Assembly (NCBI GenBank): GCA_963739305.1
Contig: CAVTZU010000011.1
Coordinates: forward strand, 32,001 to 96,000
Length of the DNA stretch: 64,000 nt
Source: Candidatus Bathyarchaeota archaeon
Lineage (GTDB): Archaea; Thermoproteota; Bathyarchaeia; Bathyarchaeales; Bathycorpusculaceae
Direction of reading: 5' to 3'
A program made the translations under genes and the position numbers. Under the pieces are notes generated by a model. That model was not told the origin of the DNA and made no database searches. It saw only the letters and a program-made list of their open reading frames with translations. Below, in pieces: positions 14,880-31,809 of this stretch. Position 1 is the stretch's first letter, and the number at the start of each line of letters is the position of its first letter.

Positions 14880-15281
14880 CTAACCATTTACACGTTTGAG
14901 CATACACTTCACTATACTTTCACACATCACGCATTCGTCAGGTATTGTCTTTTCACTCTTAGGCCGCTCACTCAGATACCCAAAACGGTGAGTACACTTT
15001 GCACTTGTTGGAGGCTCCGTTCTCTTGTCTTCAACATCACGCACAGCCTTCTCTTCACGGACATCCACCGTTGAACTTGCCCGTGCCTCGATCACTGGTG
15101 CACTGCCCGTTTCATCAATGGCTGTGAAGCACCTAGGGCACGCATCATACACTTCGGAATCCTCGCACAAGTTCTTCACTCTGATCGGCTTAGAGAAAAC
15201 AAGTCCACATGAGGAATTTGAACACGTAAACTTGGATTTTACAGTCTCTCGCGTGCGCTCTTTCCTTTTAGCCATAGTCAT
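14880..15281 (-). CDS. Hypothetical protein with two Cys-rich putative Zn-binding modules
   Basis: CSNSSC...CPRC and CTHRFGYL...PDECVMCESIVKC. Confidence 0.7.
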   Translation of the reverse strand: MTMAKRKERTRETVKSKFTCSNSSCGLVFSKPIRVKNLCEDSEVYDACPRCFTAIDETGSAPVIEARASSTVDVREEKAVRDVEDKRTEPPTSAKCTHRFGYLSERPKSEKTIPDECVMCESIVKCMLKRVNG

Positions 15282-16030: not shown

Positions 16031-16321
16031 TTGTCTGATGAGCAGAGAAGAACAAAATACGACATATACGCCGACATCATAGAGATCATCGCCAGAAAAG
16101 GACTGTGTTCTCTAACAAGAGTTTCCTATGGAGCCAACATGCCAGTGGACCGAACAAAGAAAGAGCTGACCTTCTTGGTTGCGCATGGCTTCATAACCGA
16201 AGTGACTCTGGAAGACTCAAAGAAGTATCGAGCGACCAAATGGGGACTCGAATACCTCGAAACCTTCAAACATATGAGGAAATTCTTCGCTGCCCTAGAG
16301 GATCGACCTCACAACTTGTGA
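16031..16321 (+). CDS. Winged helix-turn-helix transcriptional regulator
   Basis: RRTKYDIYADII...TRVSYGANM...KYRATKWG, typical archaeal wHTH. Confidence 0.85.
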   Translation: MSDEQRRTKYDIYADIIEIIARKGLCSLTRVSYGANMPVDRTKKELTFLVAHGFITEVTLEDSKKYRATKWGLEYLETFKHMRKFFAALEDRPHNL

Positions 16322-16689: not shown

Positions 16690-17919
16690 GTGAAAACGAT
16701 GAGCAGCGCAGCTTCAATCCCATCAAGAACCACAGTGACCTTGGACGTCGTAAACGGAGACCTCGAGATAGGCAAGCACACGATCGTAAGAGGAACTGGT
16801 AACCCTCCAGCGGTCAAGGTTAACGGGGCAGTCTACTGCGAAGGCCACAACGTCTTCGAATGCAGCCTATCAGCACGAGAGCTCAACGCCGAAAACTCAG
16901 TAACAGTTCATGGCGACCTAGAGGTCAAAGATGACGTTGAAATCGAAGATGGTCGCCTTGAGGTCTATGGAAAAATGACAGCTGACGACGTGGACGTAGA
17001 TGACGCGGTGTTCGTTAGCAAAGACCTTCACGCAACCGACGTTGAGGTAGGTGGAAGCTTGAGAGTTGAGGGAAAAACCATGGTTGAAGACATAGACGTA
17101 GGCGGAACCTTCGAAGCAAAAGGCGAAGTCGAGGCGGACAGTGTAGACGTTGGCGGAAGACTTTCCATCGACTCAAAAGTTGACATCAAGAGCATAGACG
17201 TCGGTGGAACCGCAAGCGTAGCAGGAGGAATCATCCGCCAGATTGATGTTGGAGGAACCTTCGAGTCAAAAGGTCCGTTACAATTCGAAAAGATAGACGT
17301 AGGAGGAACGGTTGACCTCGCAGGAACAAGCAAAGGAGGAGAAATCGAGGTCGGTGGCTTTCTTAGAGCCAATGGCGATCTAACGTTTGCGGAACTGGAA
17401 GCCGGCGGCAAGGTACAGATCAAAGGCCAAACTCTAGGCGAAAGCATGGATGTCGGAGGAACCGTTGACATCGACGGATCTTTGGGACTTTCTGGTACAA
17501 TGGAAGTCGGAGGCAGAGCGGACATCAGCGGAGAGATCACAACACGAAACATAGAAATCGGCGGAACTTTGCGCGCGAGAAAAGTCACGGCGCAAGAACA
17601 CGTAGAAGTTGGAGGATCAATCAACACCGGGGAAGGTGTTCTAGCACGTTCCGTTGAAATAGGAAACAGGGGAACAGTGCATGGCTCCATACGCGCAGAG
17701 GAAATAGACGTCGGAAAAGGCGCCGAAGTTGAAGACCTATACGGCAAGCATATCGTGTTGAGAAATGAAGCAAGCGCCGGCAACGTTTATGGCGAAAACT
17801 TGACGATAGAATCTCACTGCAGGATAAATGGCGAAGTACAATACACCAACGAACTGAAGCAAGGCGAACATATTTCGTATGCACAACCACCGAAGCGGGT
17901 TACAATACTCCCCCATTGA
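16690..17919 (+). CDS. Bactofilin-like beta-helix (polymer-forming cytoskeletal family) protein
   Basis: Many ~17-aa repeats of the (I/V)(D/E)VGG type. Confidence 0.75.
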   Translation: MKTMSSAASIPSRTTVTLDVVNGDLEIGKHTIVRGTGNPPAVKVNGAVYCEGHNVFECSLSARELNAENSVTVHGDLEVKDDVEIEDGRLEVYGKMTADDVDVDDAVFVSKDLHATDVEVGGSLRVEGKTMVEDIDVGGTFEAKGEVEADSVDVGGRLSIDSKVDIKSIDVGGTASVAGGIIRQIDVGGTFESKGPLQFEKIDVGGTVDLAGTSKGGEIEVGGFLRANGDLTFAELEAGGKVQIKGQTLGESMDVGGTVDIDGSLGLSGTMEVGGRADISGEITTRNIEIGGTLRARKVTAQEHVEVGGSINTGEGVLARSVEIGNRGTVHGSIRAEEIDVGKGAEVEDLYGKHIVLRNEASAGNVYGENLTIESHCRINGEVQYTNELKQGEHISYAQPPKRVTILPH

Positions 17920-17931
17920 ACTGTAAAGGAA

Positions 17932-18915
17932 TCAATCCTTCTTTGGAACCGCCAAGTCTGATATGTCCACGCTGTGTTCATATATCTGCCTGAGGAAAGA
18001 AGCCACAGCGAGAATTTGGGGAACGAAGTCAAGCGACTGAGACCGCGCTAATTCCTCAATGTCTGCAAATTCCTTTTCAACCTTCGACCGCATACTGCGA
18101 ACGCCCTCCGCCATCCCGATATCGCCTGAAAGAAAGGCGCCTAGCGCTTTGTCATGGGCCTCAAACCCGACCGTTTGGAGGTTCAAGAACAATTTACCTA
18201 GCTTTTTGTTGAGCTTCGCGCCACGTAACTCCATGATTTTCCGTGCAGTCCGAACACAGTCATCTCCAATGGCTTCCACAAGGCTCGCTGCCAAACGATA
18301 GTCCAGGCAATCGATCGGGCTGACTCCTAGTTTTTCACTTAGACTCGGGTTTTGAATTATCGTGCGCAGGATTCGCACTAGCAGAAAGTACAACCTGTTG
18401 CTTTCATCGTCACGTGCTATGACACTCTTCGCAAGCTGCAAGTCGCCTTCAACAAAGGCGTTGATAACATCTCGATACATCCCAGCAGTTATCGAGTAAC
18501 CTCTCCGAAGAATCTTTTCCGGGCGAAATCCCGAAGGTTCCAGCAAGCATTGAAGGACAATCCCCGAATGATCTTCTTCAACAATCTCTAGCCCAACCAG
18601 ATTACGAACTGTCGTCTTCACGGCATCACGAACATCAAACCCGATTTTATCCTTTCCCTCGACGCGTATGATGTCAAAACCAAGAAGATATTTTGCGATA
18701 ATCTGACGCCCAAGATACGGCCCAGGCTCCAATACAGCGGATCTAAGAGTTGGTTCAGCCCCAAACCTTGTGTCGACTGTGAGCGTGCCATCAACAGTCT
18801 CGCTCACATCGACCACTCCACCCTTCTGTAAGCCATGGCGCTCGGCCCAAGACTTCGGCAAGCAAACAAAGAAAGTGCCCCCAGCGGTACGCTGAACCTT
18901 ACGCAATTCATGCAT
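17932..18915 (-). CDS. AbrB-PhoU phosphate uptake regulator
   Basis: RKVQRTAGGTFFVCLPKSW AbrB domain plus PhoU repeats (RDDESNRLYFL, EAIGD). Confidence 0.9.
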   Translation of the reverse strand: MHELRKVQRTAGGTFFVCLPKSWAERHGLQKGGVVDVSETVDGTLTVDTRFGAEPTLRSAVLEPGPYLGRQIIAKYLLGFDIIRVEGKDKIGFDVRDAVKTTVRNLVGLEIVEEDHSGIVLQCLLEPSGFRPEKILRRGYSITAGMYRDVINAFVEGDLQLAKSVIARDDESNRLYFLLVRILRTIIQNPSLSEKLGVSPIDCLDYRLAASLVEAIGDDCVRTARKIMELRGAKLNKKLGKLFLNLQTVGFEAHDKALGAFLSGDIGMAEGVRSMRSKVEKEFADIEELARSQSLDFVPQILAVASFLRQIYEHSVDISDLAVPKKD

Positions 18916-19144
18916 TTTTGTAATCCCCAACGATAGGGTATTTGACACTGAAGTATTAAAACATCTGAAGACGGCGGAAACATTAAGGCCTCAGGATCAT
19001 ATTTGAACGAAGCAAACTGTATAGCGTGCGTACAAAAAGAGGACCGAACACGTTAAGAGCCGCAGAAGAGATACGAAAGAAAGGGAGAAAGTCAAACCAC
19101 CGGCTTAGTTGTGCCAAAGAAGATAGAGGGGAGTACCCGCCAGC

Positions 19145-20710
19145 ATGAGCGAGCATGAGAAACTTCAGAAAGCTGTCGAGCTTACTATAGCAGCAGGTTA
19201 CCAACTCAACAAAGACGCTTTTGAGTTCTTGAGCATGCTGCCAACGACGGAAGACCCCGCTTTGTTTATTACCAAAGCAATTCATCAGATCGAAAAACTT
19301 CAAGACAAGCCATTCTTTATCGATAAACAGTTTCTACAAGAACTTGTTTCACCATCAGGTCTCTCGAAGGAAGTGACAAACCAAGAATTAGAAGCTCACG
19401 GAACAGAAGAACGAGAGAGAACTTTAGGTCAGGCAATCACGGGGAAAACGACCTTCCATCCCTACGCAAAGGATATCGAGGCGAACATGAAGGTTCTTGA
19501 AGACCCAGGTTCACAGATAAGTTCAGGCGGTACGATCGAAGATTACGTAAGCTACTTCCAAGACCGATTTAGACAACTTGAGAGACTGTTGAGGCAAAGA
19601 ATGGATGTTAAGAGCGCAGCATCAGTCATGGACGCCATAAAGGCTCAAGCCAGCTCAAGACTCAAGGTCATAGGAATGCTCACTGAAAAAAGAGAATCGA
19701 AGCAGAAGACCTTTCTGACCATCGAAGATCTGAAGGCAAGCACCGTAGTATTGGTGCCGCAAAATGCGTCTCTGGACTTGCAGACAAAGACAAGAAACCT
19801 CTTGCTGGATCAAGTCATATGCATCAGCGTGCTCAAGTCGAGAAGTGGCCTGCTGGTTGCTGAAGATATAACACTGCCAGACATCGCGCAGAAATATCAG
19901 CACAAAGCGTCCGAGCCCATCTACGCAGTTCTCACCTCCGATATGCACGTCGGAAGCAAACTCTTCCTGAGAGATGCATTCCACCGGTTCGTTCTATGGC
20001 TTAATGGCAGATACGGCGACGACAGAACGCGTGACATAGCAAGCCACGTCAAATATGTCCTAATCGCAGGAGATATCGTCGACGGAATTGGCGTCTACCC
20101 AAACCAAGCCAAGGAGCTCGCAATAAAGGACGTCAACAAACAATACAGGCTCGCTGCCAGATACCTAGAGCACATCCCAGACTACATCGAAGTCATAATC
20201 ACACCTGGAAACCACGACGCACCCAGAAAGGCGCTACCCCAACCACCGATAGAAGACGCATACTTGGAGTCACTTGCAGAGACGAGGAAAGTCCACTCGC
20301 TAGGAGACCCCTGTCTGGTAAGCCTGCACGGAGTCGAGATCTTGATGTACCATGGGCGCAGCCTAGACGACGTGATCTCAACCGTGCCGGGAATGAGCCA
20401 CAGCCACCCCGAAAAAGCGATGCGACTGTTGCTTCAGGCACGGCATCTGGCCCCGCTCTACGGCGGAAAAACTCCGTTGTCACCAGAGAAGAGGGACTCT
20501 CTTGTCGTCGACCGGGTGCCGGACATCTTCCATGTAGGACATGTCCACGCCTTGGAATATGCAGCTTACAGGGGGGTTCTCAACGTCAACTCGGGATGTT
20601 GGCAGGAGCGGACAGGATATATGGTCAGGAACGGTTTCACACCCATGCCCGCAAAGGTCCCAGTAGTAAATCTTCAAACTCTAGAAACCACCGTGGTCCC
20701 GTTTGCTTGA
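19145..20710 (+). CDS. polB: DNA polymerase D small (proofreading) subunit DP1
   Basis: OB fold plus phosphoesterase motifs SDMHVGS, AGDIVDG, PGNHD, YHG, GHVH. Confidence 0.95.
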   Translation: MSEHEKLQKAVELTIAAGYQLNKDAFEFLSMLPTTEDPALFITKAIHQIEKLQDKPFFIDKQFLQELVSPSGLSKEVTNQELEAHGTEERERTLGQAITGKTTFHPYAKDIEANMKVLEDPGSQISSGGTIEDYVSYFQDRFRQLERLLRQRMDVKSAASVMDAIKAQASSRLKVIGMLTEKRESKQKTFLTIEDLKASTVVLVPQNASLDLQTKTRNLLLDQVICISVLKSRSGLLVAEDITLPDIAQKYQHKASEPIYAVLTSDMHVGSKLFLRDAFHRFVLWLNGRYGDDRTRDIASHVKYVLIAGDIVDGIGVYPNQAKELAIKDVNKQYRLAARYLEHIPDYIEVIITPGNHDAPRKALPQPPIEDAYLESLAETRKVHSLGDPCLVSLHGVEILMYHGRSLDDVISTVPGMSHSHPEKAMRLLLQARHLAPLYGGKTPLSPEKRDSLVVDRVPDIFHVGHVHALEYAAYRGVLNVNSGCWQERTGYMVRNGFTPMPAKVPVVNLQTLETTVVPFA

Positions 20711-20756: not shown

Positions 20757-22007
20757 TCAATGTCTTCTGTCAGGTCTTTTTGAAAGACAACGGGGCTCGT
20801 AAGCCACAAGCCGTCCAAGCCTATTGTCCGCAGTGAAGACATCCCGAATGAGGCTACGTGCTATTTCTAGGCGTATCTTCTTGGTTCGCCCGTACCTCCC
20901 CATACTCACAACCTTCGCGTTCAAAAGGCCCATTGCGTCCAACTCGTTTATCAACGTACTCAAACGCCGTTGAGTCAATGGTGTAATACCTAACTCTCCG
21001 CTCAGTTCGTCATATACATCAAAAATCTCACCTGTAATCGCCCCTCGGGAACTATTTCTGTCAAGATGATAAATGCTCAGCGTCACAAGCTTAGAGTGCA
21101 AAGTGAGGTTGTTCAAGGCTTCCACAACACGATTGTGCTCAATGTGTTTCTCGGCTTCGCGAACATGCTCCTCTGTAACAACGTTCCCTCCCTTCCGCTC
21201 AGCCACTTCGCCAGCGACGCGCAGAAGATCTAAGGCTCGTCGTGCATCTCCGTGTTCTGCTGCCGCAAGAGCCGCACAAAGACCGAGTGCAGCATCAGAT
21301 AATGCATTCTCGAGGAAAGCAGCGCCCGCGCGTTCAGCAAGAATGTTCCGCAACTCGTCCGCGTCATAAGGCCTAAAAACCATCTCTTCCTCACTTAACG
21401 AACTGAGAACCCTTGGATCCAAGAACTCCTTTAGCCGTAAATCATTAGATATGCCTATGAGAGTCACCTTGCTTTTCTTAAGAACTTCGTTCATTCTAGT
21501 CAGCTCATATAGCAGACCGTCTCCACACGTCCTGATCAAAGCGTCAGCTTCATCTAAAACCACCATGAAAACTACACCAGAGACTTCTAGGCCAACCTTG
21601 AACCTGTCAAACACTTCTCCAACGGAGAGCCCAGTGAAAGGGACGTTTACGCCTAAAGCTTGGCACATGCTAGCAAAGGTGCGATATTCAGAGCCAGCTA
21701 AGCGGCAGTTCACGTAGCATAATTTGATGGGTGCACCGAACTCCTTGGCCTTGAATTCCAGGCGACCCAGCACGTACTTGACCACTGCTGTCTTTCCAGT
21801 ACCTGTTTTTCCGTAGATGAGAACATTGGAGCTTCTTGCCCCCTTGAGCAGTGGAGCTACTTTCTCACCAAGCTGCCTAATCTGATCTTCCCTATGAGGT
21901 AACCTACTTGGAAGATAGTCGTGACGCAACACCTCGCGATCCTTGAAAATCCTCACGTTGCTAACGAACTTGTCAAATACATCATCAAGTAAAGCAGGAT
22001 CGGTCAT
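20757..22007 (-). CDS. cdc6: Cdc6/Orc1 replication initiator
   Basis: YGKTGTGKT Walker A, LDEAD Walker B, HGDARRALDLLR, C-terminal wHTH GRYGRTK. Confidence 0.96.
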   Translation of the reverse strand: MTDPALLDDVFDKFVSNVRIFKDREVLRHDYLPSRLPHREDQIRQLGEKVAPLLKGARSSNVLIYGKTGTGKTAVVKYVLGRLEFKAKEFGAPIKLCYVNCRLAGSEYRTFASMCQALGVNVPFTGLSVGEVFDRFKVGLEVSGVVFMVVLDEADALIRTCGDGLLYELTRMNEVLKKSKVTLIGISNDLRLKEFLDPRVLSSLSEEEMVFRPYDADELRNILAERAGAAFLENALSDAALGLCAALAAAEHGDARRALDLLRVAGEVAERKGGNVVTEEHVREAEKHIEHNRVVEALNNLTLHSKLVTLSIYHLDRNSSRGAITGEIFDVYDELSGELGITPLTQRRLSTLINELDAMGLLNAKVVSMGRYGRTKKIRLEIARSLIRDVFTADNRLGRLVAYEPRCLSKRPDRRH

Positions 22008-22336
22008 AGCTACACATCTCAGAGTTCAGGAGTAACAGCACTTCTTCCTGTGGAGGACATAACACCTGTCGTACAGAAATCTAAATTTCGAACACGATAT
22101 TCCTAAAGGTAAGTGACTTCTCAATTGGAACCTGCAAAACAGAATGGACACACACCACCGCTTCGAGTGGAAATCTGTATCTATCTGAAGAATAATGTTG
22201 ATTCCTTCTGTTTAGAAGAAATATACTCCGTTTGGTAATAGTATCGAACGTATTATAATCATTATCCTTAAACATTTTAGAGGTATTCAAGAAAACTTCA
22301 ACACTTAAGCAAGAATTAACACAGTTCAACACACCT

Positions 22337-22358
22337 GTTCCACCGGAAACATAGGGGT
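22337..22358 (+). promoter_or_regulatory. Origin recognition box (ORB)
   Basis: GTTCCACCGGAAACATAGGGGT fits the ORB consensus GTTCCAGTGGAAAC-AAAGGGG. Confidence 0.88.
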
Positions 22359-22593
22359 GCCGCGCTCCGAACAATAACATACGAATATCCTTCTCTGGCC
22401 AGCTCTACAATATGCCTGAGTCTTCATTCTAGGCGTGAGTTCCTCCCATCAATGACACACCTCCGGTGACGTTTGCGCAGCTTTTCTTTTCACTAATCGC
22501 GAACGTCGTGTGAAATTGACTTCTTAATGTCTCTAGACGGGCTCCTTTTCTGATTCTATGCCGCCCTTTATGCCTCTCCACTGTGAATAGCTC

Positions 22594-22615
22594 ACCCCTA
22601 CGCTTCTACTGGAGA
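22594..22615 (-). promoter_or_regulatory. Origin recognition box (ORB), inverted copy
   Basis: Minus strand TCTCCAGTAGAAGCGTAGGGGT; G-string faces the first ORB. Confidence 0.8.
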
Positions 22616-22814
22616 TTCCAATTAGAATGCAGCCTGCTCTTGTTTTTCCCTTTCAGAGGAGCTGTTACATATGTAATGGGGAAAGAACTGGAAAGAGGGT
22701 TCGCTGGGTCATTTGAAGCTCAGTTTGATGCTTCCCTGGAGGCACTATTCACCAAAACAGCTATAACCTTTGAACTGTGAAATTGTAAACAACAGATCTA
22801 GGTGCTGCCAACCG

Positions 22815-23246
22815 ATGCCTACAAGGAAAATGCGCGTCGAACTGTTTGACGGCGAAGGCAACCGCTATTCGATAAGCTTTCAGGGACAGATTACCAGAGA
22901 TAAGGCCCTACGTCTGCTTGACCTGGTTGAACTCTTGGGCGGAGTCCCAACCGGGGGGAGCAACCCAAGCACCGCGTCTCCTTCTCCAGCCTTCGAATTA
23001 ACAAAGTTCGAACGAATGAGGACTATGGTTGTTAGGCACTTCCCTTTGGTATGGTTTTCGTCGAGAGAGGTCCAATCGGTTTTTGAGCAGGAATATAAAG
23101 AACCGATTGCCCTAAGCACCGTTGCCACTTATCTGGCAAGAATGGCGGCCAAGGGGCTCGTCTTGAAGACAGGTCCCAGTAACAGCCTGAAGTACAAGGT
23201 TGCAACGAATGTTACCCGTGCGGCCCTAGAACAACATGTACCATAA
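22815..23246 (+). CDS. Uncharacterised protein: small N-terminal domain plus C-terminal wHTH
   Basis: WFSSREVQSVFEQEYKEPIALSTVATYLARMAAKGLV...YKV wHTH pattern; start reassigned to ATG 22815. Confidence 0.8.
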   Translation: MPTRKMRVELFDGEGNRYSISFQGQITRDKALRLLDLVELLGGVPTGGSNPSTASPSPAFELTKFERMRTMVVRHFPLVWFSSREVQSVFEQEYKEPIALSTVATYLARMAAKGLVLKTGPSNSLKYKVATNVTRAALEQHVP

Positions 23247-23271
23247 ACTTTGCAATCAAAGCTTTAGAATG

Positions 23272-23994
23272 TCAGGTTGTTTGACTTTCCGTTTTCCTTA
23301 GGAACTTTTCCATTTCTTTCTTGACGCTGTACTTGAATGGGATCTTGCTGGTGTCTCTTTCCAAGTAGCCCTCTTCGTATAATTTCTTCATCAGACGCGC
23401 TGTGTGTTCTCTGCTTAGCTTCACGTGTTCTTTGATCTCAGGTGCCGTTTTTGGCCCCTCAGAGGCAAGCAACTCTAAGGCAGACAGCTCGGTTTCTGTA
23501 AGTTGCGCTATTGCCTTGTCCTTTCTCATGGGGATGACAGCTTCGAAACTTGCTTCGGGGACAGCGGGCAACTGGGTCGCTTTCTGCTCGAGTTCGGACA
23601 GTTTGACCTTGAGGGCGTCCTGTGACGTGGCGAGGTCACGCAAATTCTTCTCCGTAATATCCAAGCGAGAAACAGCGGATGTTCTGCCGTCATTTTCTGC
23701 CTGAACTTTAGCCTCTAGGTCGCCCATGCGTTTCTCGACACCTTTTGCAATGTCAAGAGTGCTTCCTGCCTTTGAGGCGATAGTCTCCACCTTGTACGCT
23801 ACGATTTCAAGCTTGTCGCCTTCGCGTTTGAATTGCCTGTTGAAGCTCAAGACGATGTCCTCGACGGCCATTTTGGCCTTCTCAAACTCCTTCTGAGCAC
23901 GGCGGAGATATCTGTAATACTCGATGGCTGCGAAAACCGTTACTGCTGCTAAGCAAGTCACGAGGGCCAGGATCAATTCATCCAAGTGTATCAC
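23272..23994 (-). CDS. Membrane-anchored coiled-coil protein with C-terminal wHTH
   Basis: N-terminal TM helix, heptad-rich middle, LTETELSALELL...SREHTARLMKKLYEEGYLER...PFKY. Confidence 0.85.
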   Translation of the reverse strand: MIHLDELILALVTCLAAVTVFAAIEYYRYLRRAQKEFEKAKMAVEDIVLSFNRQFKREGDKLEIVAYKVETIASKAGSTLDIAKGVEKRMGDLEAKVQAENDGRTSAVSRLDITEKNLRDLATSQDALKVKLSELEQKATQLPAVPEASFEAVIPMRKDKAIAQLTETELSALELLASEGPKTAPEIKEHVKLSREHTARLMKKLYEEGYLERDTSKIPFKYSVKKEMEKFLRKTESQTT

Positions 23995-24120
23995 CTGTGA
24001 TACATACGTGATTAGTTGTGACCTTTGTCACGTTGCATCACAGATCACATCTTGACGGTTGGGAATATAAAATTTACGGTAGAGTCCATGAAATCTGAGA
24101 ACCATGACGTCACGCGTCAC
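23987..24120. repeat. GTGA/TCAC motif array, 10-bp phased, including a perfect 8-2-8 inverted repeat
   Basis: TGTATCAC-CT-GTGATACA at 23987-24004; cores at 23997, 24008, 24018, 24028, 24038; ATGACGTCAC at 24104. Confidence 0.75.
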
Positions 24121-24279
24121 AGTCTGACGGCAAATTCGATTGTCTGACCTCGCTTATGGGTATTCAGAGATAAGGCTATTTGCTGCCATTGTTTTCAATT
24201 ATAGGCATATTTGCTGGCTTCTTGCGCGTGGTTTGTGAGGTACCTGAGAAAATATGATTTTGTGGTGTGATTTGTGATG

Positions 24280-24768
24280 TCACAATTGGCTTTCAGATGG
24301 ACTGGATAGCTGTTTTAGACTTGTTTCAAGCTCCTCTCTGAGCAATTCAATGACCTTGACGCGCTCGCTTTGTTCTGTGGGTGCGTTGGGTATGTTCCTA
24401 TAGGCCTCTAAGTATGTCTTCAGTTTGTTGGCGATTTCCAGGTAGGGGTCGAGAGTTGTGCTCTCGAAGACTCCTAAGTACCCCAGAAGTATGACGGTAT
24501 AAATGGATTTTATGACATTGTCCTTTGCCTGTTTTAATGTCCTGTTAAAGGATCCGCGGCTTATTTTGGCCTTTGTTAGCCTTAAGCTGGCTTTCTCGTC
24601 GTATTTCAACGATTTGCCAGCCAATTGCTCGGATAATATGTCAATGAGGAGCGTCTCGAGCTGTGTTTTCGTTAAATGGCTGCTTGAGGCGATGATTTTG
24701 GCAACGGGGTCGTTAATGGAGCTTGTCAGCCAAGATTGAACACTTTCTTTAAGCCTCAAGTCGCTCAC
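24280..24768 (-). CDS. Uncharacterised protein with probable HTH
   Basis: LTKTQLETL...KISRGSFNRTLKQAKDNV resembles a sigma-r4/Tfx-type HTH. Confidence 0.75.
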   Translation of the reverse strand: MSDLRLKESVQSWLTSSINDPVAKIIASSSHLTKTQLETLLIDILSEQLAGKSLKYDEKASLRLTKAKISRGSFNRTLKQAKDNVIKSIYTVILLGYLGVFESTTLDPYLEIANKLKTYLEAYRNIPNAPTEQSERVKVIELLREELETSLKQLSSPSESQL

Positions 24769-25264
24769 CTGTGGGGACTATGCAAATGGATACGGTTCTG
24801 TATACGGGCTCGGCTTTTAAGGCCTTCGGATTCTTAATGCCAGGGATTGGTGCCGGCTGGAGAGGGGGGTATTGGGCTCTTTGTGCGGTGAATGGCTGTC
24901 AGGACCGACGATCGGGCGTAAGAGGCGCGGAGAGTGGTGGAAATTGGCGAATAGGGAAGGAATGGGTCGTGATGACGCTTGACCTAGAATTCAGAGTCAC
25001 ATCACTTCAGTTGTTAATGAAAGAGAGTGAGTCAATTTTTGGGTAAAGATGAAGTGTGGAGAAGACTGGGCAGGACGTGGTGCAAACCATGTTATGAAAC
25101 GAGGTGATTAGCGTGTCTTTGGCGTGCGCATCGGAAAGGATCATGTGTTGACGACGTTACAGGTCGCATCATGAATCAATGTTGATGCGTGAAGTGGGAG
25201 AATCTGTGTGGTGAACGGATTTCGTGATACGACTGAAGCGTCGTTTGATTCTTTGCGTTGCATC

Positions 25265-25370
25265 GTGACGTCACTTGTCACAAGTAAGATCACGTGTGAC
25301 GCTTTCGCGTTGACGAATTCTTCATGTTGGTGTGATGTGATTGTGATTCGACGCCCGATCACAAACGTCA
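25265..25370. repeat. Second GTGA/TCAC motif array
   Basis: Perfect palindrome GTGACGTCAC at 25265; nine GTGA/TCAC cores in about 100 bp. Confidence 0.75.
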
Positions 25371-25432
25371 ACTTTGATTGAAGTTGTTACTATCGCTGCA
25401 GAAAGACTGTTCAAAGGCTGAGATTCCGGGTT

Positions 25433-26266
25433 CTACAGTTCTTCGGCCAACCTTCTAAGTTTGTCAAACAACTCCGGTCTCAAGTCCTTAAGTGTTGGGA
25501 CGAAGGCTTCGACGGATCTTATGTCCGTGTAATCAACCTCGTGAACTACGAAGTCCTCTTCATCATACCTAGCCTGGACGAGTGGTCTTCCGTTGGGACC
25601 CAGTAGTCTGCTTCCGCCCCAAAACTGCAAGCCATCCTGAACGCCGACGAGGTTGACAAAAGCCAAAAACGCGGTGTTCTCCATGGCTCTTGCAGCTGTA
25701 AGTACTTCAAAGAAACCCCGACGGATTGTAGGCGAAGCTGAGATACAGATAATGAACTGAGCGCCTTCCAGCCTCTCGCATCTTGTCACCTCGGGAAAAT
25801 AGATGTCGTAGCATATCATGAGGCCTATCCTTCCAAGGTCGGTGGAGAATACTGCAGGCTGGTACCCAGGGCGGAAGTATCTCTTCTCTTCGAAAACGCT
25901 GTGTGTTGGTAGATACATCTTACGGTACTTTCCAACAAGGCCCTTTGGGCTTACCAGGACTGATGTATTGTGGAGCGTTGCTTGAGTGTTCTTACTAAGT
26001 TCAGGCATGCCAAAAACCACGTGAAGTCCTGTTTTCCTCGCGATTTTCTCCACGCGTTCCGTTGATTTTCCAGGGATTTCTTCCGCGAGTTCGAAGATTT
26101 GATCTCTGACCACGTAGCCAGTCAGAGAGAGTTCGGGAAGAATCAGCAGTTTAGCTCCTTGTTTCTGGGCCCTGGCCGCGGCCTTCTCGAACTTTCTCAA
26201 ATTTGCCTCTTTGTCACAAGGTTTGCTTTCAATCTGGGCTAGAGCGACGCCGAACTTGTCTTTCAA
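25433..26266 (-). CDS. Carbon-nitrogen hydrolase (nitrilase family), likely glutaminase partner of NadE
   Basis: E-K-C triad (LPEL, YRKMYLP, ICYD); 9 bp downstream of nadE. Confidence 0.88.
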   Translation of the reverse strand: MKDKFGVALAQIESKPCDKEANLRKFEKAAARAQKQGAKLLILPELSLTGYVVRDQIFELAEEIPGKSTERVEKIARKTGLHVVFGMPELSKNTQATLHNTSVLVSPKGLVGKYRKMYLPTHSVFEEKRYFRPGYQPAVFSTDLGRIGLMICYDIYFPEVTRCERLEGAQFIICISASPTIRRGFFEVLTAARAMENTAFLAFVNLVGVQDGLQFWGGSRLLGPNGRPLVQARYDEEDFVVHEVDYTDIRSVEAFVPTLKDLRPELFDKLRRLAEEL

Positions 26267-26275
26267 ACATATCCC

Positions 26276-27127
26276 TCAGGTTGTATGGTTTGGGTCTCTT
26301 CGAAGTCTGAAGTCAGTACCGATTGTTCGATATTCAAGCTTTGCTGTCAATAACACTCTTCTCTTGTGCTCCGCAGAGAGCCAGGTTTGCTTTACCTTTT
26401 TGACGATTCGTGGCTCAATTCTGAGTTGGGCTCCTATCTCCTCTTCCTTCATGAAATGTTCGAGTCCATAGAGAATTAGATCAAGCTGCTCATAAGGCAT
26501 GCCGAGCTCGTCCTCTGCGAGCTGGTTCGGCCACAGAGCCGGGGACGACGGTTTCTTGATGATCGCCCTGGGAATTTGCATGTGGCCTGCGAGGTTTCTG
26601 ACTTGGGTCTTGTACAGATCCATTATTGGCGAGATGTCCGCGGCAACGTCTCCCCATTTTGTGAAGTATCCCATCATCGATTCTGACTTGTCTGAGCTTC
26701 CACACACGATTCGTCTAAGCCTGTTTGCATAGTAGTAGTTGTAAATCATTCTAGCTCTTGCTTTTATGTTGCCTTTGCTCAGTTTGTCCGCAGGATCGAA
26801 TATGCGAATAGTCTTGTAGAGTCCTTCTAGGGAAGCTGTGATGTCTATGCTTTCTGTCTTCAGTTTGAATTTTCTGGCCGCGAGCGTTGCGTGGTGAACG
26901 TCTATTGTGCTGCGGGTTTCGTTTTCGAACAACATGAGCCCAAGGACTCGTCCTCCTCCTATTGCTTTGGCTGACAGAGCAGCGACAGTGCAACTGTCGA
27001 TTCCGCCTGATAGCCCCAGGACAATTCCAGCAGCTCCTGTCTTCTGAACGTAGTCCTTTATGAACCGAAGTATCCTTGTTTCCACTTCGGGCATGTTCAT
27101 GCGTAGAACATCAGGCGTTAGCTTCAT
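26276..27127 (-). CDS. nadE: NAD+ synthetase (NH3-dependent, single domain)
   Basis: GLSGGIDS, NIKARARM, GYFTKWGD, SAEHKR. Confidence 0.95.
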   Translation of the reverse strand: MKLTPDVLRMNMPEVETRILRFIKDYVQKTGAAGIVLGLSGGIDSCTVAALSAKAIGGGRVLGLMLFENETRSTIDVHHATLAARKFKLKTESIDITASLEGLYKTIRIFDPADKLSKGNIKARARMIYNYYYANRLRRIVCGSSDKSESMMGYFTKWGDVAADISPIMDLYKTQVRNLAGHMQIPRAIIKKPSSPALWPNQLAEDELGMPYEQLDLILYGLEHFMKEEEIGAQLRIEPRIVKKVKQTWLSAEHKRRVLLTAKLEYRTIGTDFRLRRDPNHTT

Positions 27128-27224
27128 GGGTTCCGACTTCCAGATGTTTTATGGTCGTCGGCAACTATTTAAGGTCAAATGCAAATATGAATTCGAGAAT
27201 TTCAACCCTTGGAAGGACCTAGAC

Positions 27225-27500
27225 ATGGGGAGACGAAGGAAAAAGGTTGTACGCATCCCTAAGAAGCATTTGCCAAAGTTCTATCCATGCCCTAGGTGCG
27301 GGAAGGAAACGGTGAGAGTGGAGATCGTTCGAGACGAAGGTAACGCCATGGTGGGATGCGGGAGCTGTGGGTTGAAGGAGCAGTTTCCTGTGAAGCCGGC
27401 GCAGGGTGAAGTCGATGTTTATTGTATGTTCACTGACAAGATATACGGGCGGCCCAGGGCACCATCTGCGCCCGCGGTTAAAGGCGGACGGCTAGGTTGA
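27225..27500 (+). CDS. elf1: Transcription elongation factor Elf1 homolog
   Basis: MGRRRKK...LPKFYPCPRCG...CGSCG...VDVYCMFTD; start reassigned to ATG 27225. Confidence 0.85.
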   Translation: MGRRRKKVVRIPKKHLPKFYPCPRCGKETVRVEIVRDEGNAMVGCGSCGLKEQFPVKPAQGEVDVYCMFTDKIYGRPRAPSAPAVKGGRLG

Positions 27501-28258
27501 TGTTGATGGAAGGCAACGTTGAGAAATACCTTCTCGGCAAGATTGAGTCCGAAGGCTCTATTCATATAACGCTTATAGATCCCGAGGAGGTCACTCCTCC
27601 ACAGGCATCAAAGATTGCTCGTAGAGCAAGAGCAAGTGAAACCTCCGCCATTATGATCGGAGGTTCGACGTTTGTGTCTTCGGCTCATTTAGACGACGTT
27701 GTTAAGACTGTTAAGCGGACCGTGAAGATTCCGATTATCCTTTTCCCTAACAATGTTACGGGAATCAGTCGGTACGCGGACGCCATCTGGTTTATGTCGC
27801 TCTTGAACTCGGTCGATCCATACTTTATTATGGGGGCTCAGATTCTAGGTGCGCCGCTTGTAAGGAAGTACGGTTTGGAGCCTCTTCCAATGGGGTACAT
27901 CATCGTGGGCGAAGGCGGCACAGCTGGTGTGGTTGGCAAGGCTATTCCGATTCCACACAATAAACCCGAGTTGGCGGCCGCACATGCCTTGGCAGGACAG
28001 TACTTGGGCATGCGGTTCATCTATTTGGAAGCTGGATCCGGTGCGAAGAATCCTGTTTCTCCAGACATGATCAGAACTGTAAAACGTTGTATTGATGTTC
28101 CTTTGATCGTTGGCGGCGGCATAAGGTCCAGGGAGCAAGCCTTGGCTGCAGCATCGGCAGGCGCGGACGTAATCGTTACTGGAAACGTGGTTGAAGAAAC
28201 AGGGATCAGACGAAAGGTCTCAGAGATCATTGAAGGCATAAGGCGCGGAAGAACGTAG
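27497..28258 (+). CDS. Geranylgeranylglyceryl phosphate synthase
   Basis: HITLIDP, MIGGST, ILFP, YLEAGSGA, VGGGIR, VTGN. Confidence 0.93.
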   Translation: MMLMEGNVEKYLLGKIESEGSIHITLIDPEEVTPPQASKIARRARASETSAIMIGGSTFVSSAHLDDVVKTVKRTVKIPIILFPNNVTGISRYADAIWFMSLLNSVDPYFIMGAQILGAPLVRKYGLEPLPMGYIIVGEGGTAGVVGKAIPIPHNKPELAAAHALAGQYLGMRFIYLEAGSGAKNPVSPDMIRTVKRCIDVPLIVGGGIRSREQALAAASAGADVIVTGNVVEETGIRRKVSEIIEGIRRGRT

Positions 28259-28371: not shown

Positions 28372-31300
28372 GTGTCGCGAGTGGGAGAATTGAACCATCG
28401 GATGAGCGAAGGCTATAGGCAGTACGTTGAAAGCCTCGAAGCCCGTTTTGCTGAACTGTACAGTCTCAGCGAGAAGGCACGGAGGAAAGGGTTAGATCCT
28501 TCGCTCACGCCGGAGAGCAAAATCGCAAAGGACCTTGCAGACCTGGTGGAGGGGCTCGTGGGTCCCAAAGGCGTCGCAGAGAGCATCAGAGAATTGAGTA
28601 CGAAGCTTCCGCGAGAAGAATTGGCTTTCAAAGTAACAGAAGAGATTGTGTACGGCAAGTTCGGGCACATGGAGGAGGAGGTGGCCGCGGAGCAGGCAAT
28701 TCGAACTGCATTGGCGATTTTCACTGAGGGGTTGACGGCCGCCCCTATACAGGGCGTCGCTAAAGTTAAGATAAAAGTGAATAGTGACCGGTCGCGTTAC
28801 CTTGCTATCTACTTCGCGGGACCGATTAGGTCGGCGGGGGGCACCGATCAAGCCTTGACGTTGGTAGTAGGCGATTTTGTACGCCGGCTTCTGGGGCTCG
28901 ACCGTTATAAACCAACGGAGCAGGAGATTTTACGGTTTGTTGAAGAGTTACGAATCTACGAACGCTCTTCTGGGATGCATTTTCAGTATCACATATCAGA
29001 TGAAGAACTGAAGAAGACTCTTCAATGCTTGCCAGTGGAAGTGACAGGCACGGAGTCGGATCCCATCGAGGTTTCTACGTTCAGAAACCTGCCACGAATA
29101 GAAACCAACCGCGTAAGGGGTGGGGCGCTCAGAGTTGTTAACGACGGGATCATTGGGAGAGCTCCCAAAGTCCGGACAATAATCGAGAAGCTTGGGTTTC
29201 AAGAGTGGGAGTGGCTTAAGGACGTTCGGGGCAAGTCCGGGAAGAAATCGGACGGGTTCATGGATGACGTTATAGCTGGTCGCCCAGTTTTCTCGTTCTC
29301 ATCCAGGCGAGGAGGGTTCCGGTTGAGGTATGGAAGGGCAAGGAACACGGGGTTGTCTGCCGTAGGCATTCACCCAGCAACGATGCTCGTGTTGAAGGGA
29401 TTTCTAGCTGGCGGAACCCAGATGCGCATGGAGCTTCCAGGAAAGGGCGGAATCTCGGTTCCTGTTGACGCCATAGACGGTCCAGTAGTCCGATTGAAGG
29501 ACGGTTCGGTTGTCCGAGTTTCGACCGAGAATTATAACGAGATCAAAGACAAGGTCGAGAAGATTCTGTTCTTAGGAGACATGCTGATAAGCTTTGGAGA
29601 TTTTCTCTACAACAGCAAGATCTTGCCGCCGTCGGGGTACGTTGAAGAGTGGTGGGTTCAAGAGGTGCGAAAAGCGATCGCAGAAAGGTGCGACGGAAAA
29701 CTTGAAACTGCCGCGGCAAGCATTGGTCTTTCTGCTGAAAGATTAAGAAGCTTCTTCAACAACCCCTATGACAACAGGCCCAACTTCAAAGAAGCCGTTG
29801 GGCTATCATTAGGACTGCACGTCCCAATGCATCCAGCTTACACGTTCTGCTGGTCAAATCTGCTCTCACTTGAGCAGTTAGAGAAAACGAGAACGTGGTT
29901 GTTGACGTCTGAGGTTCAAGCGGAAGACCGATTTGCCACGAAAGTAGTTGGGGAACTAAATGGAGACGTCAAACGAAGTCTAGAGTTGATAGGGCTTCCT
30001 CACAAGGTGATCGAGGGCAAGGTCATAATTCAAGGCGACGATGCAGCTGCCTTTGCACTGTGTTTAGGCTACGGAACCGCCCCAGAGTTAAGTCCGTCAA
30101 CAGCAAAGACAGTTCTGGAAGCAGTAAACTCTCTTTCGGGCCTGCAGATCAGGGACAAGGCTCCGACGTCGGTTGGCGCCCGCATGGGCAGACCTGAAAA
30201 GGCCAAGAGACGCGAGATGAAACCGTTGGTCCATGCACTTTTCCCGGTCGGTTTGGCTGGGGGCTCTCAGAGGGACATTGTTGAAGCCGCAAAACACGGA
30301 CCTACTTTCGTTGAGATCACGAAGCGGAAGTGCCCAGACTGCAAAACTTACACCTCACGCGTCAAGTGCCCCTCCTGCGGTTCTGAAACCATTCCTGAGA
30401 AGACGTGCCGAAAATGCGGAAAGAGCCTGAAAGACGATGAGTGCCCAACCTGTGGGATTCCAGCCATCAAGTTCCAGAAGCAAGTGATCAACTTCAAAGA
30501 ATCCCTTGAAAACGCCTGCAATGGCCTCGCCGTCTCAATGCCAAAAATCTTGAAAGGGGTCAAGGGGCTTACAAACGAGACCAAAACACCCGAAATCTTC
30601 GAAAAAGGGGTCCTTCGGGCTAAGCATGATTTGTCAGTTTACAAGGATGGAACAATAAGGTTCGACGCAACCAACGCGCCGCTAACGCATTTCAAACCAG
30701 CTGAGATTGGAGTTCCGGTCAGTAAGCTGAGAGAACTGGGGTACACGAGTGACGTTCATGGCGTGACCCTTACGGATGCAAATCAGATCTGTGAACTCAA
30801 GCTTCAAGACGTGGTGATCCCGGCGAAGGCAGCAGAATACTTCATCAAAGTGGCGGATTTTGTGGACGAACTGATGTCAAAGGTGTATGAGCTTCCTCCG
30901 TACTACCACATCAAGCTACCTGGAGACTTGGTGGGGCATCTAGTGTTCGGGTTGGCTCCGCACACTTGCGTTGGAATCCTTGGGCGTGTAATCGGCTTCA
31001 CCAACCTTAACCTCTGTTATGCCCATCCAGTGTGGCAGTCCGCTAAGAGAAGAGACTGCGACGGTGATGAAGACGCGCTGATTCTCGGGTTGGATGCGCT
31101 CTTGAACTTCTCCCGTGTATACCTGCCTGCACAAATCGGCGGGATAATGGATGCTCCACTTCTGCTCACTCCCGTCGTAAATACGAAAGAAGTTCAAAGA
31201 CAAGCTCACGACTTCGACGTTGCAGAATCTTATCCTCTTGAGTTTTATGAGAAGACTTGGCAAAAAACAGATGCACGGCAGGCGAGCCTATTGATTGATC

Positions 31301-31809
31301 TTATTGAATGTCGTCTAGGAACGGAAGCCCAGTTCGAAGGCTTCAACTTCACAACTGCTGTTTCCGATATCAACAAGTGCAACGCTGAAAGCGCGTATAA
31401 AAAGTTCAAAACTATGACCGACAAGTTGGACGGTCAGATGGATCTGGCTGAAAAGATCGATGCGGTAGATGCTAGCAAGGTGGCTCTCAAGGTTTTGAAG
31501 ACGCATTTTATGCCGGATATCGCGGGAAACCTGCGGGCTTTCTCGACCCAAGGCTTCAGGTGCAAAACGTGCAACCGCAAGTTCCGACGTTTGCCGCTCC
31601 GCGGGAAGTGTCCTTCATGTGGTGGTGAACTGTCCCTGACTGTTTACCGTGGTGGCATAGAGAAATATCTGGAGGCAGCAGGAAAGCTCGTTGAAAAATA
31701 CGGCTTGCCTAATTACTATTCCCAACGGATTGCTCTCGTTAGGGAGGAGATAGACGCCTTATTCGACGGAAAGAAGCCGAAACAAATTAGCTTGACCGAC
31801 TTTGCTTAA
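28372..31809 (+). CDS. polC: DNA polymerase D large subunit DP2
   Basis: AGPIRSAGGT, RLRYGR, RMGRPEK, KRRDCDGDED, Zn fingers; no intein. Confidence 0.97.
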   Translation: MSRVGELNHRMSEGYRQYVESLEARFAELYSLSEKARRKGLDPSLTPESKIAKDLADLVEGLVGPKGVAESIRELSTKLPREELAFKVTEEIVYGKFGHMEEEVAAEQAIRTALAIFTEGLTAAPIQGVAKVKIKVNSDRSRYLAIYFAGPIRSAGGTDQALTLVVGDFVRRLLGLDRYKPTEQEILRFVEELRIYERSSGMHFQYHISDEELKKTLQCLPVEVTGTESDPIEVSTFRNLPRIETNRVRGGALRVVNDGIIGRAPKVRTIIEKLGFQEWEWLKDVRGKSGKKSDGFMDDVIAGRPVFSFSSRRGGFRLRYGRARNTGLSAVGIHPATMLVLKGFLAGGTQMRMELPGKGGISVPVDAIDGPVVRLKDGSVVRVSTENYNEIKDKVEKILFLGDMLISFGDFLYNSKILPPSGYVEEWWVQEVRKAIAERCDGKLETAAASIGLSAERLRSFFNNPYDNRPNFKEAVGLSLGLHVPMHPAYTFCWSNLLSLEQLEKTRTWLLTSEVQAEDRFATKVVGELNGDVKRSLELIGLPHKVIEGKVIIQGDDAAAFALCLGYGTAPELSPSTAKTVLEAVNSLSGLQIRDKAPTSVGARMGRPEKAKRREMKPLVHALFPVGLAGGSQRDIVEAAKHGPTFVEITKRKCPDCKTYTSRVKCPSCGSETIPEKTCRKCGKSLKDDECPTCGIPAIKFQKQVINFKESLENACNGLAVSMPKILKGVKGLTNETKTPEIFEKGVLRAKHDLSVYKDGTIRFDATNAPLTHFKPAEIGVPVSKLRELGYTSDVHGVTLTDANQICELKLQDVVIPAKAAEYFIKVADFVDELMSKVYELPPYYHIKLPGDLVGHLVFGLAPHTCVGILGRVIGFTNLNLCYAHPVWQSAKRRDCDGDEDALILGLDALLNFSRVYLPAQIGGIMDAPLLLTPVVNTKEVQRQAHDFDVAESYPLEFYEKTWQKTDARQASLLIDLIECRLGTEAQFEGFNFTTAVSDINKCNAESAYKKFKTMTDKLDGQMDLAEKIDAVDASKVALKVLKTHFMPDIAGNLRAFSTQGFRCKTCNRKFRRLPLRGKCPSCGGELSLTVYRGGIEKYLEAAGKLVEKYGLPNYYSQRIALVREEIDALFDGKKPKQISLTDFA

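Follow-up and report, generated by a model that had tools for sequence, protein, structure and literature searches.

Is the replication origin of an archaeal chromosome held at the cell membrane, and could a single protein hold it there? This question is raised by a locus of Candidatus Bathyarchaeota archaeon (assembly GCA_963739305.1), the genome sequence of which amounts to 2.3 Mb in 36 contigs. The stretch analyzed here, called the window, is 64,000 nucleotides of contig CAVTZU010000011.1 (C11:32001-96000); positions given without a contig or locus name are counted from its first base. Next to an orc1/cdc6 initiator gene and a probable origin are three small genes, referred to here as a (22815-23246, + strand), b (23272-23994, - strand) and c (24280-24768, - strand). 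A preliminary description of this DNA had proposed that they are three helix-turn-helix (HTH) genes which, together with the repeat arrays between them, form an origin-tethering and segregation module. We tentatively favor a reading in which the b protein binds sites in the arrays, regulates its own gene, and by doing so holds DNA near the origin at the membrane.

The proposed architecture of b, in which an N-terminal transmembrane (TM) helix leads into a coiled coil and a winged helix forms the C-terminus, is borne out by Pfam, hydrophobicity and PDB profile results alike. Residues 165–224 match the Pfam families MarR (E 1.4e-7; 31.7 bits, cut-off 24.6) and TrmB (E 3.8e-7; 30.3 bits, cut-off 25.6), and there is a weak match to NCBIfam Lrs14 (25 bits, far under the cut-off of 90). 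Only positions 1–52 of the 59 in the MarR profile are matched and b does not have the classical soluble MarR dimer fold; outside of the winged helix the protein is made up of the TM helix, at about residues 6–24, and the coiled coil. Defined as a 19-residue window with a Kyte-Doolittle value of at least 1.7 inside the first 45 residues, the TM helix is present in 20 of 21 order-level orthologues (1.7–3.1, starting at residues 1–6); the sole exception has a mis-chosen, truncated start codon. It is also present in all three b proteins checked from ammonia oxidizers and in representatives of families f26, f30, f31, and f36 (2.2–2.5, starting at residues 1–11). The net charge following the helix is positive in 20 of the 21 order-level proteins (L035 scores 0) and in all seven further copies, which fits an N-out, C-in topology, with a predicted extracellular N-tail of 0–10 residues. 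In a PDB profile search the middle region retrieved coiled-coil chains only (MCP, 2e-9; tropomyosin, 1e-5), and a conserved linker containing I-P connects it to the winged helix. The core of the recognition helix, R-E-H-x-x-R-x-x-K-x-L, is invariant between Bathyarchaeia and ammonia oxidizers. A profile search found b in 53 of 61 relatives in the order and in 166 of 301 genomes of the phylum.

To what could such a protein bind? Two arrays of GTGA/TCAC repeats are present, one in the 285 bp spacer between b and c (IG1, 23995-24279) and the other in the 664 bp spacer beyond c (IG2, 24769-25432). There are 11 copies in IG1 (38.6/kb) and 12 in 25130-25432 (39.6/kb), against 7.5/kb genome-wide, and the arrays rank first (13 copies) and joint second (11 copies) of about 46,000 genome segments of 300 bp. 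For TGTGA/TCACA, which occurs at 1.76/kb in the genome, these are the only such segments with at least six copies; the TGTGA repeat structure is absent from the other segments with 9–11 copies of GTGA/TCAC, on contigs C16 and C22. The preliminary description had placed dense repeats upstream of both b and c. Both spaces are indeed dense, but the array on the c side is approximately 500 bp upstream rather than at the c promoter. A further dense patch, at 14880-15281 (- strand), was considered as an array and rejected, being the unrelated coding sequence of a Cys-rich ORF (open reading frame) of 133 aa. This ORF has no Pfam match, and its TCAC-rich coding strand places it among the four densest GTGA/TCAC segments of the genome.

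Within the arrays, four sites stand out. The left part of IG1 (23997-24051) has GTGA at 23997, 24008, and 24018 and TCAC at 24028, 24038, and 24045, a spacing of about 10 bp. It includes site 1, TCAC-N3-TCACA (24038-24049; 23.6 bits), the distance of which from the b start, 41–57 bp, is conserved. A predicted TATA-like box for b follows at 24064-24075 (- strand), and in orthologous spacers an A/T box (TTTAAR) is likewise found 27–28 bp from site 1. Site 2, GAC-G-TCAC-N3-TCACA, is at 24102-24123 (+ strand; 24.9 bits). Site 3, GTGA-YR-TCAC-N3-TCACA, is at 24264-24285 (- strand), over the c stop codon at 24280-24282, and at 30.5 bits is the best in the genome. The fourth, remote site, GTGA-CG-TCAC-N3-TCACA, is at 25263-25284 (+ strand; 24.1 bits), with extra half-sites nearby at 25290-25299 and 25332-25346 and a TCAC at 25359. 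The bit scores come from a matrix made of 68 sites from 20 other loci, the window being left out. When the genome was scanned with it, the four window sites came top at 23.6–30.5 bits and the next match, at 14.7, was 9 bits weaker. The motif GA[CT][GA]TCAC-N3-TCAC has three copies in 2.3 Mb, every one of them at this locus.

The cdc6-to-c region was compared between the window and 20 genomes spanning the order, 21 loci in all. The b-c spacer is dense in GTGA/TCAC in every one (25–64/kb, against 7–13/kb over whole loci). The b-c spacers, 6.2 kb together, contain 57 copies of TCAC-N3-TCAC (9.17/kb); beyond c, on the side of the remote site, the density is 0.52/kb, and for cdc6 with the origin, gene a, the a-b interval, gene b, and gene c the values are 0–0.15/kb. 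The order of elements from the b start is constant: phased half-sites with site 1, the A/T box, site 2, an unalignable stretch, and site 3 on the opposite strand. Spacing could be measured in the 16 loci that have two or more plus-strand sites together with a minus-strand site. Sites 1 and 2 are 68–73 bp apart in 13 of these, sites 2 and 3 are 152–159 bp apart in 12, and the offset of site 3 to the c stop is identical in 13. A fixed length across DNA that cannot be aligned suggests a geometric constraint, such as the DNA forming a loop or a wrap. In the ammonia oxidizers, too, the b-c spacer is filled with TCACA repeats, and the TCACA core is almost unchanged between the classes. The arrays are thus conserved, and the tethering idea is not refuted on this count.

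Two side observations concern these spacers. Inside the fixed interval between sites 2 and 3 (window 24122-24263 and 11 other loci) the sequence itself is unconserved. In locus L135 (family f15), 6.7 kb separate b from c, including a HypF-like gene judged as such from its translation; a 3.3 kb stretch at L135:7600-11017 has no ORF over 81 aa and is made of degenerate tandem duplications of about 1 kb. GTGA-N2-TCAC occurs five times in 13 kb of this locus: three copies are in or at the edge of the duplicated stretch, one of them on the stop of the HypF-like gene, one is on the c stop, and one is upstream of c.

The remote site has a separate history. In 12 loci an intact aminotransferase gene of about 390 aa is present upstream of c, and aminotransferase pseudogenes are recognizable in two loci of the same genus as the window (L021 and L024). 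In the window, tblastn found only a non-significant trace of it in 24769-25432 (+ strand; E 1.8), which is read as a pseudogene because of its position and the same-genus loci. The full GTGA-YR-TCAC-N3-TCACA is inside the aminotransferase gene in nine of the 12 loci, where it encodes V-T/M-S-L-I/V-T...S-R-V. In four loci of different genera (the window, L027, L030, and L032) it is in non-coding DNA. Is it there as a by-product of the protein sequence? Codon use was compared at conserved residues having at least three codons. The mean use of identical codons is 0.83 in seven motif columns and 0.50 in 69 flanking columns, and values of at least 0.9 are reached in three of the seven and one of the 69. 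The motif is absent from the homologous segment of the four paralogous aminotransferases in the genome of the window. Thus, the IG2 array would appear to be a functional site that has outlived its host gene and not a promoter element of c.

Which protein recognizes the sites? In three loci without b (two of family f14 and one of f17), TCAC-N3-TCAC and GTGA-N2-TCAC are absent over 8–9 kb; cdc6, a, and c are present. One of these, L126, retains the repeat at the c promoter and GTGAA repeats before a. The disappearance of the sites where b is missing, together with conservation between classes of both the recognition helix and the TCACA core, points to b as the binder of the TGTGA sites. No binder of the SegB (ribbon-helix-helix-like) or ParB type was recognized among the three proteins, a and b being winged-helix proteins and c having no match. 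The absence of a ParA/SegA ATPase, from which an ATPase-independent system had been proposed, holds at the locus, where no such ORF was seen from 17.9 to 31.8 kb. There are, however, three ParA-like ATPases encoded elsewhere in the genome. Matches to AAA_31/CbiA are on contigs C7, C20, C18, and C14, with one sub-threshold match at window position 50218. Since ParA/MinD-like ATPases are encoded elsewhere, independence from an ATPase cannot be concluded.

The origin beside which these sites are found is itself a prediction. The cdc6 gene is at 20757-22007 (- strand; Cdc6_C, E 6e-25; Cdc6_lid, E 3e-24) and was detected in 60 of 61 relatives in the order. Between it and a is an 807 bp spacer (22008-22814) containing origin recognition box (ORB)-like elements at 22338-22359 (+ strand) and, inverted, at 22593-22615, as well as an ORB core at 22163-22173; the elements were called with what we take to be the ORB consensus. 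Several ORB repeats beside orc1/cdc6 with an A/T-rich stretch in between are the usual marks of an archaeal oriC, and the spacer shows them. The core TCCAGTGGAA or its complement, often in multiple copies per locus, is in 12–13 of the 21 orthologous cdc6-a spacers. The cumulative GC-skew minimum of the window, at 23–24 kb, gives indirect support for initiation there. The spacer is therefore probably oriC, as had been supposed. Repeats of TGTGAA at 22509, 22582, and 22776 lead from it to gene a.

How general is the association of the three genes with this origin? Throughout the order, cdc6, a, b, and c are colinear. Among its 61 genomes, cdc6 and a were both found in 52 and are on the same contig in 48, always within 2.5 kb. 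The corresponding numbers are 51, 46, and 6 kb for cdc6 and b, and 52, 50, and 1.5 kb for b and c; the remaining pairs are contig breaks. An apparent loss of all three genes in genome G045 was rejected, as its contig stops 255 bp past cdc6. In all five complete genomes of family f18, the ammonia oxidizers, the order of the window is repeated: PolD small subunit, cdc6, a, b, c, PcrB. AmoA was found in the three f18 genomes tested for it, two of them among these five. The f18 proteins of the b family bear Nitrosopumilus source names and are labeled 'winged helix DNA-binding protein', 'MarR family' or 'hypothetical'. Outside the order there are 58 c-cdc6 pairs, of which 24 are on different contigs and uninformative; of the 34 sharing a contig, which include relatives that are not independent of each other, 16 are no more than 5 kb apart and 32 no more than 35 kb, in 12 families. 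Gene b adjoins c wherever both were listed, except in the single genomes G090 and G153, with hits on different contigs; in f26 and f31 the two genes are separated by just 2–6 bp, as an operon running from c to b. The proposed linkage to the origin has therefore held up. Judged from these gene orders, a three-gene module is fixed beside the predicted oriC across classes, and this stands even if the tether fails.

The distance between a and b is itself variable. Their starts are 1.4–3.6 kb apart in 22 of 51 same-contig genomes of the order (20 of them at 3.0–3.6 kb) and less than 1 kb apart in the others, the wider distance indicating an inserted stretch. In L025 the insert (L025:3054-5637) has two plus-strand ORFs, one of 351 aa without a Pfam match and one of 519 aa in which the HerA central domain is recognized (DUF87, E 3.4e-11). 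This HerA-like pair was considered as a missing motor and set aside because it is absent from the locus of the window. The sole HerA-like gene of this genome is a distant one at C11:7091-8311, which is not part of the window.

The products of a and c are less alike than the phrase 'three HTH genes' implies: a and b are confirmed, and c is not. An AF2 model of a (predicted local distance difference test score, pLDDT, 74) has a beta-hairpin and helix at residues 3–41, a disordered linker at 46–60, and a winged helix at 64–129 (helix-helix-helix-strand-strand). In Foldseek, it matches RosR, HlyU, MecI/BlaI, and AspA (E 2e-3 to 1e-2, probability 1.00). Model and matches agree with the small domain plus winged HTH described before, and place the C-terminal domain among PadR/BlaI/ArsR-like folds. 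It could not be assigned to one named winged-helix family: Penicillinase_R in Pfam scores 18.6 bits, below its cut-off of 22.6 (E 0.0025), the best PDB profile match has only E 0.025, and NCBIfam has none. Gene a is found as a single copy in 54 of 61 relatives in the order, and its profile matches ammonia oxidizers at E about 1e-28. The best 80 of 358 matches to this profile are close relatives, nearly all of them labeled Bathyarchaeia. Its recognition helix is also near-invariant, and pairs of TGTGAA are found just ahead of the gene in orthologous spacers.

For c, the predicted structure (pLDDT 76) is all-helical, with seven helices. There is no match in Pfam, NCBIfam or PDB sequence profiles, and Pfam over 20 members gave nothing consistent. 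Foldseek against PDB found nothing at E≤1e-3, the best at 1.7 (TFIIB chains) not being counted, and VIA returned only a generic C-terminal helical hairpin (Z≤7.2). In the Atlas, 14% of the members of one cluster carry Sigma70_r4 (score 0.79), a weak lead. By eye only, the segment L-T-x-x-Q...S-R-G-x-F-x-R presumably resembles sigma-70 region 4/HTH_10-like HTHs. A profile detects c in 55 of 61 relatives in the order and 147 of 301 genomes of the phylum, and there are 307 homologous representatives at E≤1e-3 among 1.84 billion. In these searches and models c is a protein family lacking any recognized fold. Its predicted promoter region has a repeat, GGATAC-N6-GTATAC, at 24788-24805 and a TATA-like box at 24815-24822 (- strand). 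The repeat is kept in Bathyarchaeia loci and occurs as TATAC-N5-TGTATAC in ammonia oxidizers. In loci of families f36 (L128:4888-5742) and f30 (L129:4336-5135), c is inverted relative to b with 800–856 bp in between; a reverse-strand frame in that stretch resembles, by eye, an XRE-type HTH protein.

The mechanism that we propose runs as follows. The b protein would be a single-pass membrane protein with a very short outside N-tail, its coiled coil and MarR-type winged helix being cytoplasmic. Oligomers formed through the coiled coil would bind TGTGA/TCACA sites, which form four clusters in 1.3 kb: on the predicted transcription start of b, 72 bp upstream of it, on the c stop, and about 1 kb off beyond c. 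Binding may repress or tune the b-c pair, possibly via looping. If b is membrane-integral, binding its sites would also bring DNA to the membrane, and bound b would hold there a point about 2 kb from oriC. Genes a and c would each encode a further small protein, DNA-binding or accessory, and each has a repeat of its own near the promoter (TGTGAA and GGATAC-N6-GTATAC, respectively). A role dependent on position is favored by the proximity to the origin in a dozen families, by the TM anchor, which is universal, and by the protection of the remote site. Pinning to the membrane may be what has been selected. In our judgment this combined reading, operator and anchor in one, is the most economical and the likeliest one, though with somewhat less than an even chance of being right.

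Several observations weigh against it. There are only four sites, in 1.3 kb, and they are not dispersed like ram, ricS or parS; the sites of known tethers are spread over hundreds of kb. Site 1 overlaps the predicted transcription start of b, the classic place for the operator of an autorepressor. Two of the c-cdc6 pairs outside the order are 61 and 152 kb apart, and the b-c pair is 7–33 kb from cdc6 in families f26, f31, and f41. Gene a is missing from the single f13 locus examined. No b was found in genomes of f14 and f17 that are 96–100% complete and have cdc6, a, and c, so b is dispensable there, and the covariation of b with its sites comes from these three genomes in two families. Finally, b ranges in length from 130 to 248 aa across lineages and its coiled coil is strongly variable; in f26 and f31, at only 130–147 aa, the protein consists of the TM helix, a short linker and the winged helix. 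Of the tethering and segregation module first proposed, then, the linkage, conserved arrays and conserved TM anchor remain, while the few compact sites and the operator-like site 1 speak against it.

Are the sites simply operators? In a purely transcriptional explanation a, b, and c would be autoregulated factors and the TGTGA sites operators of b and c, perhaps with a loop around c. Proximity to the origin would come from co-regulation with cdc6 and PolD or from gene dosage coupled to replication, and attachment to the membrane would be unselected or absent. We consider this doubtful in itself, yet nearly as likely as the combined reading. Plain regulation is favored by the operator-like layout and the lineage losses of b: site 1 covers the predicted transcription start of b and keeps a constant distance to the TATA-like box, every gene has a promoter-proximal repeat, the matrix matches are all local, b can be lost in f14 and f17, and its domain family (MarR/TrmB/Lrs14-like) consists of transcription factors. 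It does not, however, explain why 32 of 34 same-contig pairs in 12 families are within 35 kb of cdc6 even when non-adjacent, why there is a TM anchor in every lineage checked, or why a site 1 kb off is under synonymous constraint and survives the decay of its gene.

A stronger form of the tethering idea, which the sequence comparisons make conceivable and which we regard as rather unlikely, is that the locus is an ancient archaeal origin-membrane tether. In it, b would act on a compact, centromere-like TGTGA cluster, with a and c as accessories and no dedicated motor. If this were true, the cluster would have been beside oriC since before the split of Bathyarchaeia and ammonia-oxidizing Nitrososphaeria, and b would anchor the origin region at the membrane once it has been replicated. 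It would be a non-homologous archaeal counterpart of RacA and RicO, with c paired with b and a facing cdc6 across oriC.

Release of b from the membrane would be another way to use the same architecture. A TM helix with a cytoplasmic DNA-binding domain is the arrangement of membrane-tethered factors of the sigma and SREBP types. Like these, b could be stored inactive at the membrane until proteolysis freed a soluble winged-helix fragment to act on the nearby operators, with no link of DNA to membrane. The layout of b and the conserved I-P linker between coiled coil and winged helix agree with this. With an extracellular tail of 0–10 residues, though, b has no sensor domain, and no protease gene is conserved in the cluster; we consider regulated release improbable. 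Slightly less probable again is that a, c or a factor encoded elsewhere binds the TGTGA arrays and that b has some other target. The near-invariant recognition helix of a, the TGTGAA before a, and the persistence of related GTGAA before a in L126, which has no b, could be taken that way. Both site types vanish in the three loci without b despite the presence of a and c, however, and the sites overlap the predicted promoter of b rather than those of a or c.

Could the arrays belong to the origin, as extra initiator sites or a second origin bound by Orc1/Cdc6? They are 1.2–2.5 kb from the ORB elements and near the GC-skew minimum. Their motif, though, is unrelated to the ORB core kept between cdc6 and a; the sites go with b-c and not with cdc6 across inserts of 2.6–3 kb or 6.7 kb, or distances of 7–33 kb; and they are absent from loci without b that retain cdc6 and the ORB-bearing spacer. 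This makes the possibility a very slight one. Least credible of all, and strongly disfavored, is a compositional accident or a functionless aminotransferase leftover: in its favor, codons of the aminotransferase (V-T-S-L...S-R-V) are the source of the remote cluster, and the dense repeats at 14880-15281 are ordinary coding sequence; against it are ranks 1 and 2 of about 46,000 segments, presence at fixed spacing in 21 of 21 loci, synonymous constraint with the motif missing from paralogues, and retention in four non-coding contexts in different genera.

The remaining genes around the locus are as follows. On the cdc6 side, a PhoU-like gene (17932-18948, - strand), with MazE/AbrB-like and PhoU domains, and the PolD small subunit gene (19145-20710, + strand) precede cdc6. 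Beyond IG2 are genes for a nitrilase (25433-26266, - strand), NAD synthase (26276-27127, - strand), Elf1 (27222-27500, + strand), and PcrB/GGGP synthase (27497-28258, + strand), followed by an 1145-aa ORF (28372-31809, + strand) that is the putative PolD large subunit, judged from its translation. Small regulators flank the origin region: the MazE/AbrB-like plus PhoU two-domain protein is one and an HTH_45 winged-helix protein (16031-16321, + strand; E 3.7e-14) another. Nearby, a 409-aa protein (16690-17916, + strand) has a bactofilin domain (PF04519, E 4.9e-13, in three stretches). Of the 61 genomes of the order, 28 gave a match to the bactofilin gene. In the family of the window, 16 genomes carry it on the same side of cdc6 as PolD, 4–5 kb away; in other families of the order it is on different contigs or was not found. 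Rfam gave zero matches at E≤1 over 21900-25500, and ARAGORN found no tRNA in the window.

What would the locus mean for these organisms? It offers a concrete and conserved candidate for a connection between origin and envelope in two very abundant and poorly understood groups, Bathyarchaeia and ammonia-oxidizing Nitrososphaeria. As proteins of the b family are found in cultured Nitrosopumilus species, the idea is testable beyond metagenomics. Three things would remain even if the tether fails: the module beside oriC, the c family, for which no known fold was recognized, and a candidate binding site embedded in the synonymous codon choice of an aminotransferase gene, which it has outlasted. In the open-access full texts searched, no description of this gene cluster was found.

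Several known systems resemble parts of it. RacA, which binds ram during Bacillus subtilis sporulation, is soluble and anchored via DivIVA, with many dispersed sites; it is unrelated to b in sequence and is specific to sporulation. In ParR/parC-type systems repeats phased at about 10 bp flank the promoter of the binder and are operator and centromere at once. The phased repeats at the predicted b promoter are similar, but those systems are plasmid-borne, with a soluble binder and an adjacent motor, ParM or ParA. ToxR and CadC are TM-anchored factors that bind chromosomal operators while in the membrane, with a periplasmic sensor and an N-terminal DNA-binding domain; b differs in having almost no external part (0–10 residues) and an ancient fixed place beside the origin. 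With MarR, TrmB, and Lrs14 regulators b shares its C-terminal 60-residue domain. The classical members are soluble dimers with dimerization helices flanking the winged helix, in place of which b has a TM helix and a long coiled coil.

For archaea, SegAB and ParAB homologues are the sole candidates put forward in passages of a review on segregation (PMC7617429). SegAB of Sulfolobus has a small number of palindromic sites immediately ahead of the operon that encodes it, and these may also be regulatory (PMC5120986, PMC7617429). It is like b in being a chromosome-linked archaeal DNA binder with few sites upstream of its own operon. It differs in that SegB has an adjacent ParA-like SegA and no membrane anchor, whereas b is of MarR type in a cluster without an ATPase gene.

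The closest analogue found is RicO, a bacterial system demonstrated experimentally. There too, one polypeptide has a DNA-binding domain, a coiled coil, and a membrane element, with origin-proximal sites and no dedicated ATPase. The domain order is mirrored: RicO starts with its DNA-binding domain and ends in an amphipathic helix, whereas b starts with the TM helix and ends in the winged helix. RicO has nine sites over about 700 kb, while here there are four in 1.3 kb, one of them on b's own predicted promoter, a difference that counts against tethering. No sequence relation to RicO was seen, and b is an archaeal protein for which such a role is proposed.

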